From the NCBI GenBank assembly GCA_964581535.1, contig CAZOOW010000005.1:8140-72139 (forward strand): a stretch of DNA of 64,000 bases, read 5' to 3'. This document shows, one piece after another, positions 5,331-57,781 of this stretch. The position numbers and the translations under genes were made by a program. How positions within the stretch are numbered: position 1 is the first letter of the stretch; each line of letters begins with the position of its first letter. The stretch comes from an uncultured Candidatus Saccharibacteria bacterium. Lineage in GTDB: Bacteria > Patescibacteriota > Saccharimonadia > Saccharimonadales > Saccharimonadaceae. The notes beneath the pieces were generated by a model. It did no database searches. It was not told the origin of the DNA and saw only the letters and a program-made list of their open reading frames with translations.

Positions 5331-6482
5331 ATGAGCCGGGAAATCTACCTCGACTATGCCGCTGCTACCCCGCTGGACAAGCGGGTGTTTTTGGCTATGG
5401 AGCCCTACCTGAGCGCGCATTTCTATAATCCCTCAAGCTCTTATAGTCCCGCCCGAGAGGTAAAAAGGGACTATGACGCGGCAAAACATTCCATAGCCCA
5501 GCTGATAGGTGCGAAGCGTGACGAGCTCATCATGACGGCCGGTGCGACAGAGTCGATAAACCTGGCATTTCACGGCGTATTGCAACCGGATGATAATGTT
5601 GTCATTGGTGCGATTGAACATCCGTCCGTTTATGCGGTAGCGGCAGGCTATCAGTTCTCCCTCGCCAAAAGTACGACGAAGGGTGTCATAACTCCCGAGG
5701 CCGTAAGTGCGGCGGTTAAAGATACGACGAAACTGGTGAGTATTACGGCCGCGGATAGCGAAATAGGTGTCGTCCAGTCGCTCGGTGATATTGCGAGGGA
5801 GCTCGAAAAAATTCGTGATAGCCGAAGGCGGCGTGGCATCAATACACCACTTTATTTCCATACTGACGCATCACAAGCAGTTGGAATGATCGACCTGCAT
5901 GTAGCTCGACTCGGCGTCGATATGCTGACGCTCAATGCAGCAAAATGCTACGGACCAAAACAAGTAGGTCTGTTGTGGGTTTCCTCACGCGTCAAGATTC
6001 AACCGAGCTTTCGTGGCGGTGGGCAGGAGCGGGGGCTGCGGTCTGGAACAGAAAACGTTGCGGGAGTGATTGGGTTTTCAGTGGCTATGCGACTGGCAGT
6101 TGAAAAACGGCACACTAACGTTAAAAAGCTCCGCGAGCTACGCTTGCGGCTCCAAAATGGACTGACAAAATCATTGCCAGACATGGTTATTAACGGGCAT
6201 TCGAAAAAACATCTGCCAGGAATAATTAACATAAGTCATCCGAGCGTTGATGGTGAGCGCGTTGTTATGCATCTGGATATGAAAGGGTTGTACTGCTCGA
6301 CCGGAGCAGCTTGTGCAGCGAACAAAGGAACCCGCTCCAAGGCCCTGGAAGCTATCGGACTTAGTCCCGAACTTGCGGATGGTAGCCTACGCCTTAGTTT
6401 GGGTAAATACACAACTGAAGAAGAAATCGATAGGGCAATTACCCTTATAACAGAGGCCGTTACAGCGGAGCGGGGGCTATGA
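5331..6482 (+). CDS. cysteine desulfurase (class V aminotransferase, NifS/IscS-like)
   Basis: IYLDYAAATP, HTDASQAVG, NAAKCYGPK (PLP lysine region), and catalytic loop STGAACAA. Confidence 0.9.
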   Translation: MSREIYLDYAAATPLDKRVFLAMEPYLSAHFYNPSSSYSPAREVKRDYDAAKHSIAQLIGAKRDELIMTAGATESINLAFHGVLQPDDNVVIGAIEHPSVYAVAAGYQFSLAKSTTKGVITPEAVSAAVKDTTKLVSITAADSEIGVVQSLGDIARELEKIRDSRRRRGINTPLYFHTDASQAVGMIDLHVARLGVDMLTLNAAKCYGPKQVGLLWVSSRVKIQPSFRGGGQERGLRSGTENVAGVIGFSVAMRLAVEKRHTNVKKLRELRLRLQNGLTKSLPDMVINGHSKKHLPGIINISHPSVDGERVVMHLDMKGLYCSTGAACAANKGTRSKALEAIGLSPELADGSLRLSLGKYTTEEEIDRAITLITEAVTAERGL

Positions 6483-14932: not shown

Positions 14933-15099
14933 AAACATGCAACTAACTGTGAGTGAACTTGACTACTGTAAATGTATGTCGGTTTGGGTGGCTCATAGGT
15001 AGTCTGCCTACCGTCGAACTGTCGTACGAGTGCAACTCTATACTGGTTCTCTAAATAGCACTAACTACGCGAGGTAAAGGTCGACACGCACTCTGTTTT

Positions 15100-16296
15100 T
15101 TGTTCGTTATATCCGAAACAAAAAAGTTAAGACAAAGTAACGGTAGTCGCGTTCTAGCAATAGAATGCACGGAGAAGACGATTAGTACTCAATCCGAGGC
15201 TCTCGCCACCACTTCATCGCAACCTGCTACGCGCAAGAAGCGACGTTCATATTCTCAATTTAGCTCGATCATGGCGTATATCGCCGTTTTAACGTTACTT
15301 GCTAGTGTTATTTCCGTAGGCTATCAGTCTCCCGTTGAAAAACAAGTTGCCGCACAGTCGAGTGAAGGCAGCGTTCTTCAAGTGGAAAATCCGTCAGTCG
15401 ACCAGCGTGTTGCGGCGGAATTAGCTGCCACGGCTGCCGAAACAGCTGATCTGGCCGTGACGTCAAACGTCGTCAATATGTCGATTTCACTCACCGCCAA
15501 AGCTGATTTGGCGCAAACTGATACGACCGTTATCGCTAAACCTCAGATTCTCGAGGTTGGCGACCAGCGGGGTATTTCTACGTATACTTCAGTCGCTGGA
15601 GATACGGTTCAATCTGTCGCAGACAAATATGGTGTTAACGCAGATACGGTGCGTTGGTCGAATCGACTTATTGGAGACGCAATTACAGTAGGTAGCTCCC
15701 TAAAAGTACCAAATGTTAATGGATTTATTTATGTCGTTCGTGAAGGCGACACCATAGACAGCATTGCGAGCCGTTATCAGGCTCAGGCTGCCCGAATCAT
15801 CAGCTATAACGACCTCGAAATCGGAGGTATTACACCTGGTCAACAGATTGTCGTGCCTGACGGTGTACTTCCGGAAACTGAACGACCTGGTTACACTGCA
15901 CCGGTCTCTGGTAATGTGCGGACAAACACGCAGGTCGTTGCCTACGTCGGCAACTCTGCTTCTGTTGGGAACCGCTATGATTATGGATATTGTACGTGGT
16001 ACGTTTATAATCGCCGTGCCGAGCTGGGTCGCCCAGTCGGTAGCTTCTGGGGGAATGCCTCGACCTGGGCTAGTTATGCTCGTGGAAGTGGTTATGCCGT
16101 GAACAGCACGCCTGAAGTCGGCGCCGTCATGCAGGATAGCTATAGTGCTGGTGGGTACGGCCACGTTGCAGTTGTTGAGAGCAAGAATGCCGACGGAGGT
16201 ATAACAGTTTCAGAAATGAACTATGCCGGCTGGAATGTCCGCTCATACCGAACTCTATCTGCCGCAGAAGCTGCTCGCTACAACTTTATCCATTAG
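15100..16296 (+). CDS. secreted LysM(x2)-CHAP peptidoglycan hydrolase
   Basis: Two LysM repeats (YTSVAGDTVQSVADKYGV.., YVVREGDTIDSIASRYQA..). C-terminal CHAP motifs YGYCTWYVYNRR and GYGHVAVVE. The start is uncertain: TTG 15100 in the ORF track, ATG 15271 is possible. Confidence 0.8.
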   Translation: MFVISETKKLRQSNGSRVLAIECTEKTISTQSEALATTSSQPATRKKRRSYSQFSSIMAYIAVLTLLASVISVGYQSPVEKQVAAQSSEGSVLQVENPSVDQRVAAELAATAAETADLAVTSNVVNMSISLTAKADLAQTDTTVIAKPQILEVGDQRGISTYTSVAGDTVQSVADKYGVNADTVRWSNRLIGDAITVGSSLKVPNVNGFIYVVREGDTIDSIASRYQAQAARIISYNDLEIGGITPGQQIVVPDGVLPETERPGYTAPVSGNVRTNTQVVAYVGNSASVGNRYDYGYCTWYVYNRRAELGRPVGSFWGNASTWASYARGSGYAVNSTPEVGAVMQDSYSAGGYGHVAVVESKNADGGITVSEMNYAGWNVRSYRTLSAAEAARYNFIH

Positions 16297-16372: not shown

Positions 16373-16458
16373 GTTCCTCGCTCTTTCTTTGTACCGCACC
16401 CGTTCATTTATTCCATAGGATGACGTTAATAAATCACCTCTGTTATAATAAGGCGAGT

Positions 16459-17754
16459 ATGTTTGTTGATAGTGCGAAGGTTTCAGTTGAGGCAGGGCGT
16501 GGTGGTGACGGCCGCGTCAGTTTTCGTCATGAGAAATATGTTGATAAAGGCGGTCCGGACGGCGGCGACGGCGGCAGAGGCGGTGATGTTATTTTTCAGG
16601 CCGATACTAGGGTCAACACGCTCGTGGATTTTCGTATTAAAAAAATCCTATCGGCTGAAAACGGTCAACCCGGTGGCGAGCGTAAAAAACACGGACGAAA
16701 TGGCAAGAACATCACTATCTCGGTGCCTGTCGGTACACAAATATATGACGGCGATATATTGCTAGCTGACTTGGTGGTAAATGAACAGCCTGCGGTCGTG
16801 GCGCGCGGTGGCGACGGGGGTTTTGGGAATGCTCATTTCAAAAGTTCGACACGGCAGGCTCCTCGCATCGCTGAGTTAGGCGAAAAAGGTGACGAACTAG
16901 AGCTTCGGCTTGAGCTAAAGCTGTTAGCAGACGTTGGGCTTGTCGGCTTTCCAAATGCCGGCAAATCGACCTTTCTGAGCGTGGTAACTAGTGCAAAACC
17001 CGCCATCGCTGACTATGCGTTTACGACGCTTGAGCCGAATCTTGGCGTGGCTGACATAGACGATACAAGCCTGCTTATAGCGGACATCCCGGGCCTAATT
17101 GAAGGTGCGAGTGAAGGGAAGGGGCTGGGAGATGCATTTCTCCGTCACATTGAGCGTACTGCGGTCATATTACACCTTGTCGATGCGTATAACGATGATC
17201 CGGCCGCAGCCTACAAAACTATACGGACTGAGCTGGATGCCTACAGCCATGACCTCGCTAAACTGCCGGAAGTTGTCGTCCTCTCAAAAACGGATGGGCT
17301 AGACGATGAAATAGTTTCAGACCAGCTTCGTAAGTTAAAAAATGCGGCGAAACACTCTACGGTGCTTGCGATGTCATCACTTGCGAGGGAAGGAACTTCC
17401 GAAGTGCTTCGCAGGCTAGCAAAGGAAGTCGCTACCGTTCGTAAGCGCCAATCGGACGAAGCAGCTGAACTGCTTGCAGCGAAAAAAGAGGATGATTCCA
17501 CGATATCGCTCAGCGACCGCGAGTTAGATTCTGCATGGAAAGTAGTAAGGCATAACGAGGAGTTCGTAGTAACAGGCACAAAGATTGAAAAGTTTGCCAG
17601 GCGTACTGATTTTGAAAACGTACATAGCGTGAACCGGCTTCGGGATATTATGAGAAAAATGGGGATTACCCATGAACTTATCCGGGCTGGGGCAGAAAAT
17701 ACCAGTATCGTAGCGATAGACGATAACAGATTGACTCTTGACGAAATTCAATAA
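16459..17754 (+). CDS. obg: GTPase Obg/CgtA
   Basis: MFVDSAKV..GRGGDGRVSFRHEKY Obg fold, G1 motif GFPNAGKST, DIPGLIEGA, SKTD, and a C-terminal OCT domain. ATG 16459 was chosen over the ORF-track start at 16420. Confidence 0.93.
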   Translation: MFVDSAKVSVEAGRGGDGRVSFRHEKYVDKGGPDGGDGGRGGDVIFQADTRVNTLVDFRIKKILSAENGQPGGERKKHGRNGKNITISVPVGTQIYDGDILLADLVVNEQPAVVARGGDGGFGNAHFKSSTRQAPRIAELGEKGDELELRLELKLLADVGLVGFPNAGKSTFLSVVTSAKPAIADYAFTTLEPNLGVADIDDTSLLIADIPGLIEGASEGKGLGDAFLRHIERTAVILHLVDAYNDDPAAAYKTIRTELDAYSHDLAKLPEVVVLSKTDGLDDEIVSDQLRKLKNAAKHSTVLAMSSLAREGTSEVLRRLAKEVATVRKRQSDEAAELLAAKKEDDSTISLSDRELDSAWKVVRHNEEFVVTGTKIEKFARRTDFENVHSVNRLRDIMRKMGITHELIRAGAENTSIVAIDDNRLTLDEIQ

Positions 17755-17769
17755 ATATATAAAAAAGTA

Positions 17770-17798
17770 TTGACATTAGTCAAATATAATGCTATAAT
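17770..17798 (+). promoter_or_regulatory. consensus sigma70-type promoter of the non-coding unit
   Basis: TTGACA 17770-17775, 17-nt spacer, TATAAT 17793-17798. Confidence 0.6.
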
Positions 17799-17804
17799 GC
17801 ATAT

Positions 17805-18576
17805 GTTACCTCAGGAAACTGAGCGTTAACGACCTTTGACAAGGTAGTGTTATAGCGGCTCAACCAGCGCACAGAGTGTCCACCCTGCGGCTGCGCGTTG
17901 ATTGAGTCGCTAGCAACCCGCTAAGCGCGTACGTAAGAAGGAGGTGACTATGGGCCCGCCCATGACCACCATCACCTAGCTATCGCTTCGCCGGCCTCGC
18001 CGTTTCAACCCGACCCGACTACCAATCCTTTATGAGCGTTCGTTTCATATAGGGTAGAAAGGGTGGCAATGCCCACCAGTGGTTTTACCTAGTGTTTTCA
18101 TCTGATACCCATCTACAGAAAGGGGTGAACGATGTTCACCAGTGGTTTTGTCTGTTAAAGCGGTGCCGAGCGTCGTCGGGTGTACGACGCAGTCCGCACG
18201 CCTCACGTACCGGTCGCACCCCCGTGGTGCAGGACGTGAAGTGTCGATCTAGCCAAGAGGATTCCCAACCGGATATGGTTTAACAGGTAAAACTACCTTT
18301 TTAAATCATTCCCTGGCTCTGAGAGATATCCTATCGCACATGCGAGGCTGATGCCGGACGAAGAGAGCGCAGGCCTAAAAAGCTTGCCGACACCTGTCTG
18401 TTCGATCGATTGACGGGCGTGCTCCTAGTCCTGCACGACACACGAACAATTTCATAACAACTGAATACTTGTTCGGGCGGCCGTGGTGGTCACGTAGGCA
18501 GTTTTGCCTCCCACCACGGCCGCCAGGCTACACACTACCTTGTCACTTACAACTCCCTAAGTCAGGGAGATTTTTA
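17805..18576 (+). ncRNA. unclassified large (about 770 nt) structured ncRNA candidate
   Basis: The unit runs from promoter to terminator with no credible ORF. A perfect 14-bp helix joins the ends (17837-17850 / 18532-18545). There is a GAAA-capped 5' hairpin (17810-17823), a perfect 14-bp hairpin (18476-18489 / 18511-18524) and several more GC-rich hairpins. GC is patchy at roughly 55 percent. Confidence 0.5.
18553..18576 (+). terminator. intrinsic terminator of the non-coding unit
   Basis: CTCCCT (18553-18558) / AGGGAG (18564-18569) stem, then A TTTTT. The T-run is present only in the plus sense. Confidence 0.6.
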
Positions 18577-18577
18577 T

Positions 18578-19141
18578 TTATCGTAAATCTGGATATCGTC
18601 GAAATAGTTTCGCCAGCGTTGCTTCATCTAGACGGGCGATTTCGGCTATCATGACAAATTGAGTTAGACCACAGTAGGCAATGAGTTCAGAAACGACATC
18701 GAAACAGGGGTAGGGGTGAAACCACATACTATCTTTAACAAGCGTAAAACCTAGACGATGCAGTTGCGAAGTAAGTAATCGTCGCTGCTTGGCATGACGC
18801 GCCGGGATATCGTAGCTGACCATCCGCCATGTGCCGTCCCAGCTACGCTGTGGCTGGATAAATAGCTCATCTAGCTTGGCACGCTGCAGTCGATGAACGC
18901 CTTTGACAGAGGGCTGTACTGTCAAGGTTTTTCCCGATTTGGTGATCTCAACCAGTCCGAGCCTTCGAAGATTAGCGACAATTGTCTGTTTTTCAGACTT
19001 TGATAGTCCAGAAGGGAAGACATCGAGAAGTTCAAGCGCTTCAGGTAGGGTAGAGGCACTGACTGTCAGGCCGGAGAGCCCTTCAGAACCGATGATACCG
19101 AGAACTGTATTGAGGTGTTTGGTCGAATCACGCTGTGTCAT
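18578..19141 (-). CDS. PaaX-like winged-helix regulator (PaaX_C / Cas2-fold C-terminal domain)
   Basis: WDGTWRMVSYDIPARHAKQRRLLTSQLHRLGFTLVKDSMWFHP matches the PaaX C-terminal pattern, and the N-terminus is wHTH-like. ATG at 19141 was chosen. Confidence 0.55.
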   Translation of the reverse strand: MTQRDSTKHLNTVLGIIGSEGLSGLTVSASTLPEALELLDVFPSGLSKSEKQTIVANLRRLGLVEITKSGKTLTVQPSVKGVHRLQRAKLDELFIQPQRSWDGTWRMVSYDIPARHAKQRRLLTSQLHRLGFTLVKDSMWFHPYPCFDVVSELIAYCGLTQFVMIAEIARLDEATLAKLFRRYPDLR

Positions 19142-19267
19142 ACTGCTTATGTTAACAAAAAAAGCAAACGTATACAAACATGCATTTATCAGTCAATAAA
19201 CTATAATATGCATTTACGCCCACCTGTATTTTTTTGTAGAATTTATGATTTGTTATAGTAAGGGCAG

Positions 19268-20677
19268 ATGAAAACATTTTTTTTCTACGACCTCGAAACT
19301 AGTGGGCTCAATGCTCGTTCACAACGTATTATGCAGTTTGCAGGTATTCGGACCGATCTTGATCTTCGACCAGTCGGCGAGCCAATAAATGTGCTCGTAC
19401 GCCTCAGCGACGATATTCTGCCGGATCCCGGTGCCATCATGGTGACCGGTATTACTCCTCAGATGACGCTTACGGATGGGCTGAGTGAGCCGGAATTTTG
19501 CAAATTACTTATAAGCGAGGCGTTTACGTCGGACACGATTACAGTTGGGTTTAATAATGTTCGGTTCGATGACGAGTTTATCCGTCATACACTGTGGCGG
19601 AATTTTTATGACCCGTATGAGTGGGCCTGGGCTGACGGTCGCAGCCGCTGGGATATGCTCGATGTTGTCCGCATGACTCGTGCGCTTCGTCCCGACGGAA
19701 TTAAATGGCCGGTAGATAAGGACGGTAAGGCAGTCAATAAGCTGGAGCTTATCGCCAAAGAAAACAACCTAGTACATACAAAAGCGCACGACGCGCTGAG
19801 TGACGTCGAAGCGCTAATCGGTGTTGCAAAACTGATAAAAACAAATCAACCTAAATTATTTGAATATTTACTGACTATGCGGGACAAGAAAGAGGTTGCT
19901 AAGCTCGTTAATTTAGAAAACCCTCAGCCGTTCGTGTATGCTTCAGGGCGCTATGATGCGGCATATGAAAAAACGACAATAGCGTTTCCTATTGCGCCTG
20001 GAGTAAAACCTGGGTCAGTGCTGGTCTATGACCTACGGTACGACCCGTCGCCTTTTTACCAGGCTTCACCCACAGCGCTCGCGAGTGTACTGTTTGCGGA
20101 TAAGGCCGCTCGTGAAGCGGATGACTATCAACGCTTGCCAGTAAAAGAGCTTAGCTACAACAAATGTCCAGCCGTTGCCCCAGTCGGTGTTATGGATGAA
20201 GAAACGCAGCATAGACTATCTATAGATTTGGAAGTTATAAAGAAGCACGTCCGTTTGCTTGCGGATAATCCCGGTTTTGCCGGAGCAGTAAAACAGGCAT
20301 TTGAGATGCGAGAACCCTATGCACCGAGCGTTGATGTCGAAGGCCAGTTGTACGATAGTTTTATTGATGATAAGGATAAAGGTCGGGTTCGTGCAGTACG
20401 TGGGGCAGACGTAAACGAGCTTGCTGACTTTCACCCCGAGTTTATAGATGAACGACTCGGCGAGTTACTATTTCGCTACAAAGCAAGATCATTTTCCGAC
20501 AGCCTCAGTGATGAGGAGCGACGAACGTGGGAAGACTTTCGTGGCGAAAAATTGCGACAAAATTTGCCAAGCTATTTAGTACAGTTGCAAAAACTTGCAG
20601 TTACGACGAGCAATCACTATTTACTTGAGGAGCTGCAACTCTGGGCAGAGAGTATCATGCCAGCTGATATCGACTAG
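19268..20677 (+). CDS. sbcB: exodeoxyribonuclease I
   Basis: DEDDh exonuclease motifs FFFYDLETSG, GFNNVRFDDEF and HDALSDV, plus an SbcB C-terminal region. Confidence 0.88.
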   Translation: MKTFFFYDLETSGLNARSQRIMQFAGIRTDLDLRPVGEPINVLVRLSDDILPDPGAIMVTGITPQMTLTDGLSEPEFCKLLISEAFTSDTITVGFNNVRFDDEFIRHTLWRNFYDPYEWAWADGRSRWDMLDVVRMTRALRPDGIKWPVDKDGKAVNKLELIAKENNLVHTKAHDALSDVEALIGVAKLIKTNQPKLFEYLLTMRDKKEVAKLVNLENPQPFVYASGRYDAAYEKTTIAFPIAPGVKPGSVLVYDLRYDPSPFYQASPTALASVLFADKAAREADDYQRLPVKELSYNKCPAVAPVGVMDEETQHRLSIDLEVIKKHVRLLADNPGFAGAVKQAFEMREPYAPSVDVEGQLYDSFIDDKDKGRVRAVRGADVNELADFHPEFIDERLGELLFRYKARSFSDSLSDEERRTWEDFRGEKLRQNLPSYLVQLQKLAVTTSNHYLLEELQLWAESIMPADID

Positions 20678-56809: not shown

Positions 56810-57048
56810 CAGATACATTTCCCGTAAAGCCTGATATCGAGTTTGGTACGTACCGCCACTATAAAGGTGGGTTATATGAAGTAACAGATTTATCGTGTGA
56901 TGAAGAAACGCACGAATGGCGTGTCACGTATGTACCGCTGTATGACGTTGAGCCCGGTACACCAGATAAATGGAACAGACGGTCTAGTGTATTTTTTCAA
57001 GAGATTGCGGTCGATGGGATAATAAAAAGACGATTTGAAAAGACATGA
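56806..57048 (+). CDS. DUF1653-family small protein
   Basis: GTYRHYKGGLYEV..VTYVPLY signature. ATGA overlap with ligA. Confidence 0.7.
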   Translation: MTDTFPVKPDIEFGTYRHYKGGLYEVTDLSCDEETHEWRVTYVPLYDVEPGTPDKWNRRSSVFFQEIAVDGIIKRRFEKT

Positions 57049-57053
57049 TTACT

Positions 57054-57084
57054 AAAACCCGCTCAAATATAAGAGCGGGTTTTT
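57054..57084. terminator. bidirectional intrinsic terminator
   Basis: ACCCGCTC / GAGCGGGT stem flanked by an A-run and TTTT, between convergent genes. Confidence 0.75.
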
Positions 57085-57102
57085 GTAAGAAAGTAGCTAA
57101 AA

Positions 57103-57357
57103 CTAGTTTTCTTCGCGAGGGCGTGCCTCGTTGACCGTAATGGTGCGGCCGTCGAGCTCAGAGTTGTTGAGCTTGTCGATGGCTGCTTGGCCTTCAGCGT
57201 CGTCTTCGAATTCGACGAAACCAAAGCCTCGGCTGCGGCCTGACTCGCGGTCAGTGATGACCTTGGCGCTAGCGACGGTGCCGCAAGACTCGAAATGAGC
57301 TTTCAGTGTATCGTCGGTTGTCGCCCAAGCAAGGCTGCCTACAAATAATTTTTTCAC
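57103..57357 (-). CDS. RRM-type RNA-binding protein
   Basis: RNP-2 KLFVGSL and RNP-1 RGFGFVEF. GTG start with SD GAAGGA 8 nt upstream. Confidence 0.9.
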   Translation of the reverse strand: MKKLFVGSLAWATTDDTLKAHFESCGTVASAKVITDRESGRSRGFGFVEFEDDAEGQAAIDKLNNSELDGRTITVNEARPREEN

Positions 57358-57648
57358 GTAATCTATCCTTCGTACGTTAACTTTCAGTTCGACCTGCGAA
57401 GGATGGTGCCCTACCGCGTAACCTGAACAGCTTTAGTTAAGCATATTCACAGCAAAATACCTAGCATATTGTCAAAATGCTTGTGTTATGGCACTATAGA
57501 TGTGTTAGCTGGTGCGCACGAGGTTGCGCGTCGTTAAACAAACACCTTCACATAAAAACACCACAACCTCGGGTGGGCGCGCAACAGCTCACATATTAAA
57601 TTCACCTCTGGAAACAGGGGTGAATTTATGGTAGTATAGGGCTCGTTC

Positions 57649-57725
57649 GGGGCATTGGCGCAGTTGGCTAGCGCGCTTCCATGGCATGGAAGAGGTCATC
57701 GGTTCGAATCCGATATGCTCCACCA
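57649..57725 (+). tRNA. tRNA-Ala(GGC)
   Basis: Acceptor GGGGCAT/ATGCTCC with the G3:U70 identity pair, anticodon loop ATGGCAT, T-loop TTCGAAT, encoded CCA. Confidence 0.92.
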
Positions 57726-57732
57726 AACAAAA

Positions 57733-57762
57733 AATACTGATTCGCTATGAATCAGTATTTTT
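57733..57762 (+). terminator. intrinsic terminator after tRNA-Ala
   Basis: 11-bp stem AATACTGATTC / GAATCAGTATT followed by a T-run. Confidence 0.75.
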
Positions 57763-57781
57763 CGTATACTGAAACGTAACC

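Follow-up and report, generated by a model that had tools for sequence, protein, structure and literature searches.

Bacteria of the candidate phyla radiation (CPR) have tiny genomes, and to our knowledge their regulatory RNAs are almost uncharacterized. What, then, is carried by the 823 bp that separate the stop codon of obg (17754) from that of a convergent paaX-like gene (18578) in an uncultured Candidatus Saccharibacteria bacterium (assembly GCA_964581535.1, contig CAZOOW010000005.1, positions 8,140 to 72,139 of the forward strand)? This whole stretch of 64,000 nucleotides is called the window below, and its first letter is position 1. The longest open reading frame (ORF) overlapping the gap has only 63 aa and none of the five longest ORFs of 17755-18577 has a match in Pfam, which agrees with an earlier note on this DNA that reported about 820 bp without any credible ORF. 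The answer given here is that the gap harbours one of the structured accessory RNAs of a hitherto undescribed family that evolves fast in environmental Saccharimonadales. That this member is a new dual-function RNA, both structured and endowed with micro-ORFs in the manner of RNAIII or SR1, is the interpretation that we favour, at roughly even chances.

The gap contains what is shown to be a discrete unit, delimited by a consensus promoter, expected to be strong and constitutive, and by an intrinsic terminator (Table 1). An A-rich tract lies upstream of the promoter, transcription is predicted to start near 17805 and the predicted transcript measures ~775 nt. Another promoter-like site (10/12, TTGACT-18-TATATT, 17783-17754 on the minus strand) overlaps the promoter of the unit and is directed toward the 3' end of obg; the AT-rich spacer may have produced it by chance. 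The minimum free energy (MFE) fold of the unit has a z-score of -10.5 against shuffled sequences on the plus strand (-9.2 for 17755-18577), compared with -2.5 to +1.4 for four other ORF-free gaps and two coding stretches of the window used as controls (-1.6 to +1.4 for the coding ones alone). A fifth ORF-free gap, at 56810-57781, gives -6.8. Besides the elements listed in Table 1, the MFE fold includes a 7-bp hairpin (18170-18190) and nested helices at ~18203-18239. The coordinates that the earlier note had proposed for these helices, the promoter, the terminator, the 5' hairpin, the 14-bp pair and the 14-bp hairpin were all verified, and its proposal of a discrete structured transcription unit holds (12/12 promoter, terminator, z of about -9 to -10). 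The bulged helix that it had drawn at 17860-17901 exists as part of a longer hairpin, H2 (17853-17912). The unit is richer in GC than the window (0.53 versus 0.48).

None of the known RNA classes searched for accounts for this unit. Rfam 15 at gathering thresholds has no match in 17755-18577, nor in the units of 18 related loci; even at E<=10, the only matches are snoR20a over the promoter region (17713-17800) and an MS2 hairpin inside obg, which agrees with the initial failure to recognize any family by eye. ARAGORN detects neither a transfer RNA (tRNA) nor a transfer-messenger RNA (tmRNA) in 17000-19500, and the micro-ORFs described below do not end in the usual tmRNA tag sequence. In the literature searched, we found no described large or dual-function RNA of such a type from Saccharibacteria or other CPR bacteria.

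Homologues are almost invisible to sequence searches. Using the unit as query, nhmmer and blastn gave nothing convincing in 80 obg loci and, in 88 and then ~170 loci (designated by L-numbers, with A and B for two units at one locus), no similarity beyond the L081 frame and a motif of 27 nt in L037. Homologues were therefore sought by synteny and architecture, through inspection of the contigs with PaaX homologues and of the longer gaps between obg and sbcB (exonuclease I). About 22 units of 400-860 nt were found in this way, directly after obg, in metagenome-assembled genomes (MAGs) of Saccharimonadales (the window, L126, L151, L158, L166-168, L145, L124, L125, L089-091, L001A/B, which also appear as L086-088, L007A/B, L029, L033, L037A/B, L069, L009 and L015).

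All these units have the same order of parts: a consensus promoter, a 5' hairpin, a linker (GA)CCTTT, the long-range closing helix P1, the hairpin H2, a variable interior, a GC-rich last hairpin and a terminator. The promoter AGTATTGACA...GCTATAAT of the window unit has the same form in L081, L124, L126, L151 and others. The 5' hairpin opens every unit with differing sequences (often TAACGTCAG...CTGACG) and is kept in the mini units L081m and L122m (see below). P1 comprises 13-17 bp (only 6-7 bp in L009); its outer part, TTGACAAG/CTTGTCAA, is conserved over 8 bp and its inner part is lineage-specific. At the position of H2, every unit has a hairpin of 45-60 nt, with differing sequences. The last hairpin, often GGYGGCCGC..GCGGCCRCC, ends 7-16 nt (31 nt in L037A) before the aligned 14-nt segment of the P1 3' arm in most units; this segment begins 3 nt inside the 14-bp arm of the window. 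A promoter and a terminator of its own, as expected from a dual-function small RNA, are found at the sequence level in all units, the terminator always at the same position, mini units included. When each unit is folded on its own by MFE, this common architecture reappears, and all 18 full-length units tested have z-scores from -6.4 to -15.3.

The interiors can hardly be aligned, at 65-80% identity of the flanking proteins. BLAST comparisons between units connect the interior of the window unit (681 nt) with no other unit, except for the 27-nt motif in L037B, and its frame with L081. Such a lack of detectable similarity does not fit an ornate, sequence-conserved RNA like OLE, ROOL or GOLLD, to whose size class the earlier note had assigned the unit. 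Motifs of the 3' domain are common to the window, L126, L124/125, L151 and L158. Two pairs of units located beside the very same PaaX protein, L124 versus L125 and L151 versus L158, are mosaic: their 3' parts are similar or near-identical (~430 nt in L124/L125; 271 nt at 89% in L151/L158), and no relation is seen in H2 and around the first micro-ORF. Such mosaics imply that members of the family recombine within populations.

Is the pairing itself under selection? In a hand-registered alignment of 15 units, 14 bp of P1 and 11 bp from the foot of the last hairpin provide 25 frame pairs. Compensatory (double) changes occur at 25/25 of them, a count biased toward structure, as the arms were extracted by hand because they pair. 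The cells of the frame are paired in 95.4% of cases, versus 36-46% when the partner is slid, and no shuffle reached the observed values. Double changes affect 14/14 aligned pairs of P1 (92.8% of cells paired) and 11/11 of the last hairpin (98.8%). Two other tests are less circular. Within the long perfect helices, the single mismatches read on the promoter-sense strand are of the G·U type in seven cases and of the A·C type in one. Between L166, L167 and L168, which are 98% identical, 3/406 paired columns vary versus 8/200 unpaired ones (Fisher p = 0.008), and the three stem changes are all C<->U opposite G, so that the wobble is kept on the sense strand only. Both results support an RNA that would be transcribed in the proposed (+) direction. 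As judged from these alignments, P1, H2 and the GC-rich last hairpin are shown to be maintained by compensatory evolution on the sense strand; positional constancy combined with lineage-specific arm sequences would be hard to explain without selected pairing. A 4-bp helix of the 3' domain (18251-18254 with 18346-18349) is proposed more tentatively, from covariation (AGCC/GGCU, GGCU/AGCC, GGCU/GGCC) in five sequences only. It competes with the 9-bp long-range helix (17992-18000 with 18342-18350) suggested in the earlier note, which is not supported.

Retention of ~0.8 kb in a reduced genome had been taken as a sign of an important function. The distribution of the family speaks against this view. 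In most Saccharibacteria, sbcB follows obg within ~50 nt. The nearest relatives of the window in the Obg tree are L081/L082, L122 and L085: the first two carry a mini unit of 93 nt whose P1 is reduced to a plain, small-looped hairpin (TGACAAGGTAGT-GTA-ACTACCTTGTCA), the third carries a 75-nt mini unit without P1 and the last has a 25-nt gap in place of the unit. Since the nearest relatives keep only a mini unit or nothing, the unit is accessory and dispensable rather than essential. Units are present in the only clade that has the paaX-like gene (PF20803) between obg and sbcB and in a second environmental clade, and none occurs in the sampled lineages from the mouth and the rumen. L160-165 lack the unit as well. 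No paaX stands between obg and sbcB beside the units of L007, L029, L033, L037, L069, L009 and L015. L001, L007 and L037 carry tandem duplicates. Gain, loss, duplication and recombination of the unit within one fixed locus are thereby shown. The obg-sbcB intergenic site (L001-L080) is also a hotspot for other lineage-specific inserts, namely a TerC/DUF475 membrane protein (L013), a rubrerythrin (L073) and several proteins without Pfam domain, in addition to the paaX-like gene and the RNA units.

The unit of the window also contains three micro-ORFs led by a Shine-Dalgarno (SD) sequence (Table 1) and an 18-nt direct repeat (18069-18086 and 18132-18149), both absent from the earlier note. In all three cases, the SD lies 5-7 nt from the start codon and is predicted to pair with the first codons, the start codon being in or next to the hairpin loop. 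The SD of micro-ORF 1, predicted to pair with ACC-rich codons, is among the strongest in the window. Over all units, 45 SD-plus-start sites are found versus 20 ± 4.5 in shuffled sequences. Three peptide motifs recur in units that are otherwise without similarity: M-R/G/D-x-P-P in the window, L166 (MDPPF..), L126 (MRSPPTM..), L001A (MRAPPSM..) and L029 (MRSPPCN..); M-I-R.. in L090, L089, L124, L125 and L158; and ..[ST]GFT-stop in the window, L037B, L007A (twice), L126 and L151. In the first micro-ORFs, Arg is encoded by CGA, CGC or AGA and Pro-Pro by CCG CCC, CCG CCG or CCC CCG; the MIR motif likewise varies at third positions. The GFT motif reads GGN TTY ACY, with variation limited to third codon positions, and is preceded by various Ser codons (AGT, AGC, TCT, TCA); a start codon is in frame in 6/6 of these modules. 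L037B has a counterpart of micro-ORF 3, (GTG)FTSGFE. A complementary RNA partner for the 'SGFT' motif was looked for in the units and no consistent site was found. From these patterns, translation of the micro-ORFs is likely and the unit is probably not purely non-coding.

Table 1. Features of the unit downstream of obg, of its neighbours and of other elements of the window.
Feature	Position	Strand	Description
Sigma-70 promoter	17770-17798	+	TTGACA 17770-17775, 17-nt spacer, extended -10 TG, TATAAT 17793-17798; 12/12 consensus
5'-terminal stem-loop	17805-17830	+	core CTCAG-GAAA-CTGAG 17810-17823; in MFE fold
P1 5' arm	17837-17850	+	TGACAAGGTAGTGT; perfect 14-bp complement of 18532-18545
H2	17853-17912	+	long, nearly perfect hairpin directly after P1 5' arm; in MFE fold; includes the bulged 5+5 helix of the earlier note
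Micro-ORF 1	17938-17979	+	SD AAGGAGGTGA 17938-17947, ATG 17950, MGPPMTTIT, TAG 17977-17979
Micro-ORF 2 module	18057-18092	+	SD GAAAGGGTGG, hairpin 18062-18077, ATG 18069 in loop, MPTSGFT, TAG 18090-18092, then U-rich tract
Micro-ORF 3 module	18118-18158	+	SD GAAAGGGGTGA, hairpin 18124-18140, ATG 18132, MFTSGFVC, TAA 18156-18158
3'-domain core	18250-18349	+	motif TAGCCAAGAGGA 18250-18261; hairpin CGC-ACAT-GCG 18335-18344; candidate helix AGCC 18251-18254 with GGCU 18346-18349
Last hairpin	18476-18524	+	GGCGGCCGTGGTGG...CCACCACGGCCGCC; perfect 14 bp (18476-18489 with 18511-18524); ends 7 nt before P1 3' arm
P1 3' arm	18532-18545	+	ACACTACCTTGTCA; partner in the long-range closing helix
Intrinsic terminator	18553-18580	+	CTCCCT-AAGTC-AGGGAG (18553-18569) and T-run; abuts stop codon of paaX-like gene
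obg	16420-17754	+	444 aa; Pfam GTP1_OBG, MMR_HSR1, DUF1967
paaX-like gene	18578-19141	-	187 aa; helix-turn-helix and PaaX_M Cas2-like domain, Pfam PF20803; convergent
lysM-TM7 RNA	15006-15174	+	Rfam RF03005, 66 bits; upstream of LysM/CHAP gene 15100-16296
Second locus with closing helix	30795-28871	-	promoter TTGACA-17-TACTAT ~30795-30767; leader ~330 nt; 19-bp arms
Small element	57490-57590	+	~100-170 nt; closes on itself, GCTGGTRCGC...GGGTGGGCGCGCAWCAGC, TTAAAACAAAC-like centre; upstream of a tRNA

Taken together, the working of a dual-function RNA of this kind could be pictured as follows. The 5' hairpin, P1 and the terminator would form a closed-loop, insulated and nuclease-resistant frame. 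Its cargo would consist of hairpin modules, in each of which a strong SD is paired with the first codons of a micro-ORF of 5-16 codons whose start lies in or beside the loop. Ribosomes would open these modules and synthesize micro-peptides such as M(R/G/D)xPP.., MIR.. or ..(S/T)GFT-stop. The output of the RNA would be either the peptides themselves or a remodelling of the RNA by ribosome occupancy.

Several observations weigh against this interpretation, in addition to the bias of the frame count mentioned above. The reverse complements of the units contain 30 SD-plus-start sites. The peptide motifs are very short and were recognized post hoc, and most differences between the micro-ORFs of L124 and L125 are non-synonymous. 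Behind the GFT motif, the stop is invariably TAG with C or T as the next base, and L124/L125 have a similar GTTTCRCTAGG that lies in no ORF; this points to an RNA-level rather than a coding motif. As the window interior can be aligned with no other unit, its internal helices fall outside the covariation analysis. Frequent loss shows that the absence of the unit has little fitness cost.

A purely non-coding large structured RNA, acting as a ribonucleoprotein scaffold or in some other RNA-level role like OLE, ROOL, GOLLD or raiA, is a less likely alternative. The SD-like purine tracts and starts would then be structural or protein-binding and the micro-ORFs incidental. The extreme structure of every unit, the covarying helices, the stem-sparing microevolution and the invariant TAG followed by C or T would all be expected from such an RNA, as would the motifs conserved outside ORFs or without a start (TAGCCnAGAGGAG, GTTTCRCTAGG in L124/125, GAGAAGG-hairpin-GCGCT). 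However, sequence conservation is far below that of any curated large RNA class, the long helices are almost without flaw, where irregular ones or a wealth of tertiary motifs would be expected, the distribution is patchy with repeated loss, and neither the three-nucleotide periodicity nor the in-frame starts of the GFT modules would be anticipated. The label 'non-coding' used in the earlier note is made doubtful by the three SD-led micro-ORFs, whose peptide motifs recur in unrelated units with variation of the synonymous type.

A more specific and rather improbable scenario extends the dual-function interpretation to a closed-loop, 'ribosome-engaging' RNA of ultra-small epibiotic bacteria. The scaffold would carry SD-sequestered micro-ORFs, and ribosomes would stall or pause on their conserved peptides (M-R-x-P-P.., M-I-R.. 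and ..G-F-T-stop, the last in a weak UAG-C context); the RNA would either sense the translational or amino-acid status or release signal peptides of 5-9 residues. In this scenario, the same promoter and closing-helix frame would be a lineage-specific expression cassette for micro-ORF RNAs or for secreted-protein genes.

Closing helices do indeed occur around protein genes. In L055, at the same site downstream of obg (5340-6310), a perfect 15-bp helix joins the 5' and 3' untranslated regions of a 263-aa gene, and in L056 (7290-7990, minus strand) a perfect 16-bp helix surrounds the gene of a 161-aa YdcK-like beta-solenoid protein; both closures lie between promoter and terminator. A second locus of the window has arms that form a perfect 19-bp helix (GCAAACTAGATAGTCATTG at 30620-30602 and its complement at 28889-28871) and bracket a gene for a signal-peptide protein of ~494 aa without Pfam domain. 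In its promoter and 5' leader, this locus is similar to the unit (68% over 54 nt), and the two have a motif of 13 nt, ATCTAGCCAAGAG, in common; the second locus has a GC-rich hairpin just before the 3' arm and no terminator after this arm. The arms around protein genes differ in sequence from those of the units, and closures of at least 15 bp are rare (3/555 genes surveyed). The helix that the earlier note saw as closing the molecule, P1, recurs with compensatory changes in the related units; in this lineage, such helices are not restricted to non-coding RNAs.

That the unit is the messenger of a small peptide of the type I toxin kind, kept stable and silent by the closing helix and the SD-sequestering hairpins until it is processed, as for hok or aapA, is quite improbable. 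Like hok/sok and aapA/IsoA, the unit combines a long-distance 5'-3' closing helix, SD sequences predicted to be sequestered in local hairpins, small ORFs and patchy, tandemly duplicated loci with decay and scars, and its closing helix has equivalents around real protein genes. Some units even encode hydrophobic peptides of 23-43 aa (L009, MEYITVFLWVANLFVTYVLPLFG; L001B, 43 aa). Unlike these systems, the window unit has no hydrophobic ORF, its SGFT-type and other peptides are of 7-9 aa, no peptide is common to all units, and the units are 2-4 times longer, with several unrelated micro-ORFs. A consensus scan found no minus-strand promoter-like site inside 17805-18580, where an antisense promoter would be looked for, and about 80% of the RNA lies outside any SD-led ORF yet is strongly structured.

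A DNA-level element, either a miniature inverted-repeat transposable element (MITE) or foldback repeat whose terminal inverted repeats would be the 14-bp arms, or an inverton lying between two recombination sites, is highly improbable. MITEs and foldback repeats resemble the unit by their perfect terminal inverted repeats, their variable interior of 0.4-0.7 kb without long ORF, their strong folding and their variable length. In addition, the outer 8 bp are conserved like transposase-bound ends, the mini form of L081 amounts to two arms back to back, and perfectly identical arms are typical of recombination sites. Against this, the unit is present as a single copy: the arm 14-mer occurs in the 64 kb only at its two arms, even with 2 mismatches, which speaks against the dispersed MITE-like repeat considered in the earlier note. 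All the units of relatives lie on the 3' side of obg, in genomes whose Obg proteins are only 55-70% identical. The flanks, read directly, show no consistent target-site duplication: no direct repeat is found in the window (..GACCTT|TGACAAGG.. / ..CCTTGTCA|CTTACA..), L001B, L126, L124 or L151, and only L007A has TACTT on both sides. Inverted copies would give similarity on the minus strand, and in the assemblies none was seen when units of different samples were compared. From one lineage to another, the inner arm sequences change and yet remain complementary, through compensatory changes and with mismatches of the G·U type on the promoter-sense strand, and the promoter, 5' hairpin and terminator, which lie outside the repeats, are conserved alongside. 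A phage or plasmid origin was also rejected, as blastn against phage and plasmid collections gave no match; a scan of viral contigs with CCAGYGGNTTTACCTAG gave 18 matches, none of them unit-like (no SD or hairpin upstream).

Finally, a decaying remnant, in which the promoter, closing helix and terminator once framed a gene for a protein, in the way seen at L055, at L056 and at the second locus of the window, and the interior is eroding without function, would account for the brackets around intact genes, for the different genes inserted between obg and sbcB in other lineages and for interiors that are unalignable or lost in close relatives, and is scarcely credible, since six-frame tblastn against ~150 related loci and Pfam searches with the five longest ORFs gave no match (the pseudogene possibility raised in the earlier note being rejected on this basis), z-scores of -6 to -15 in every unit would not be expected from decaying coding DNA, module types recur at fixed positions and stems are under purifying selection between near-identical strains.

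Around the unit, the best relatives of the window Obg protein are all encoded by Saccharibacteria MAGs, and the paaX-like protein has 83 homologues. An exact-sequence look-up returned no record of the Obg protein nor of a 199-aa paaX ORF starting with TTG; the 187-aa form is on record. Eight related loci also have the lysM-TM7 motif. Among the remaining large ORF-free gaps of the window, only 56810-57781 is structured; it contains a tRNA, small genes and a small element of another kind (Table 1). The same small element is found right after obg in four other Saccharibacteria (L064, ~5400-5510; L072, ~5490-5600; L063; L060) and has no Rfam match, even at E<=1. This gap, the second most structured one, also includes an 84-aa ORF (57103-57357, minus strand), whose product looks, by eye, like an RNA-binding protein of the RRM type.

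The locus defines a new RNA family of 0.4-0.9 kb that is absent from Rfam, has an unusually clear architecture and bears signs that its RNA pairing is selected. The family is new, and the kinds to which it belongs are known, the large structured bacterial RNAs and the dual-function RNAs. What sets it apart is that its interior is hypervariable, that its long helices are perfect, that it contains micro-ORF modules and that its closing-helix design is also seen around a few protein genes. If the micro-ORFs are translated, it would be a CPR example of dual-function RNAs, and a structured RNA would then harbour short peptide motifs, RAPP-like ones among them. The recurrence of the promoter and closing-helix frame with different cargos, one of them a secreted-protein gene of the window, hints at a lineage-specific packaging of accessory transcripts. 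It is also a reminder that a large 'non-coding' gap in a reduced genome may be accessory, hypervariable and partly micro-ORF-coding. Being accessory and not an ornate conserved RNA, the unit is less remarkable than the earlier note had hoped, and it is still a genuine discovery lead.

How does the unit compare with known systems? OLE, ROOL, GOLLD, HEARO and raiA are like it in size class, intergenic position, own transcription signals, strong structure and narrow or patchy range. Ornate bacterial RNAs of unknown function have been studied by cryo-electron microscopy (bioRxiv 10.1101/2024.12.08.627333). Such RNAs have conserved nucleotides, irregular structures rich in tertiary motifs and covariance models, none of which matches the unit; what the unit conserves is an architecture and a few short motifs, with long perfect helices and SD-led micro-ORFs.

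A second comparison concerns arrest peptides. RAPP, RSPP and RGPP are translation-impeding motifs (PMC12992588), and arrest peptides of the RAPP, RGPP, RSPP and RAGP types have also been described (PMC10951233). Similar motifs are present in the first micro-ORFs of several units: MRAPPS in L001A, MRSPPT in L126, MRSPPC in L029 and MIRAPT/N in L090 and L089, the window having MGPPM. In known arrest peptides, the motif lies near the C-terminus of a longer chain and a downstream gene of the same operon is regulated. In the units, it lies at residues 2-5 and no gene follows; the window peptide MGPPMTTIT has no Arg, its motif occupies residues 2-4 and the RNA ends at a terminator without downstream gene, unlike a RAPP-type leader.

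A third comparison is with RNAIII (RF00503), SR1/SR1P and SgrS/SgrT. The unit differs from RNAIII by the absence of an Rfam match at E<=10, by its phylum, by the size of its ORFs (5-16 codons versus 26 aa for hld), by its hypervariable interiors and in that no target-pairing domain was identified. The resemblance lies in the overall design: RNAIII of Staphylococcus aureus is an independent transcript of several hundred nt with many hairpins, long-range helices that join its 5' and 3' regions, an internal small ORF with its SD and a terminator hairpin, and both the RNA and the peptide that it encodes can be functional.

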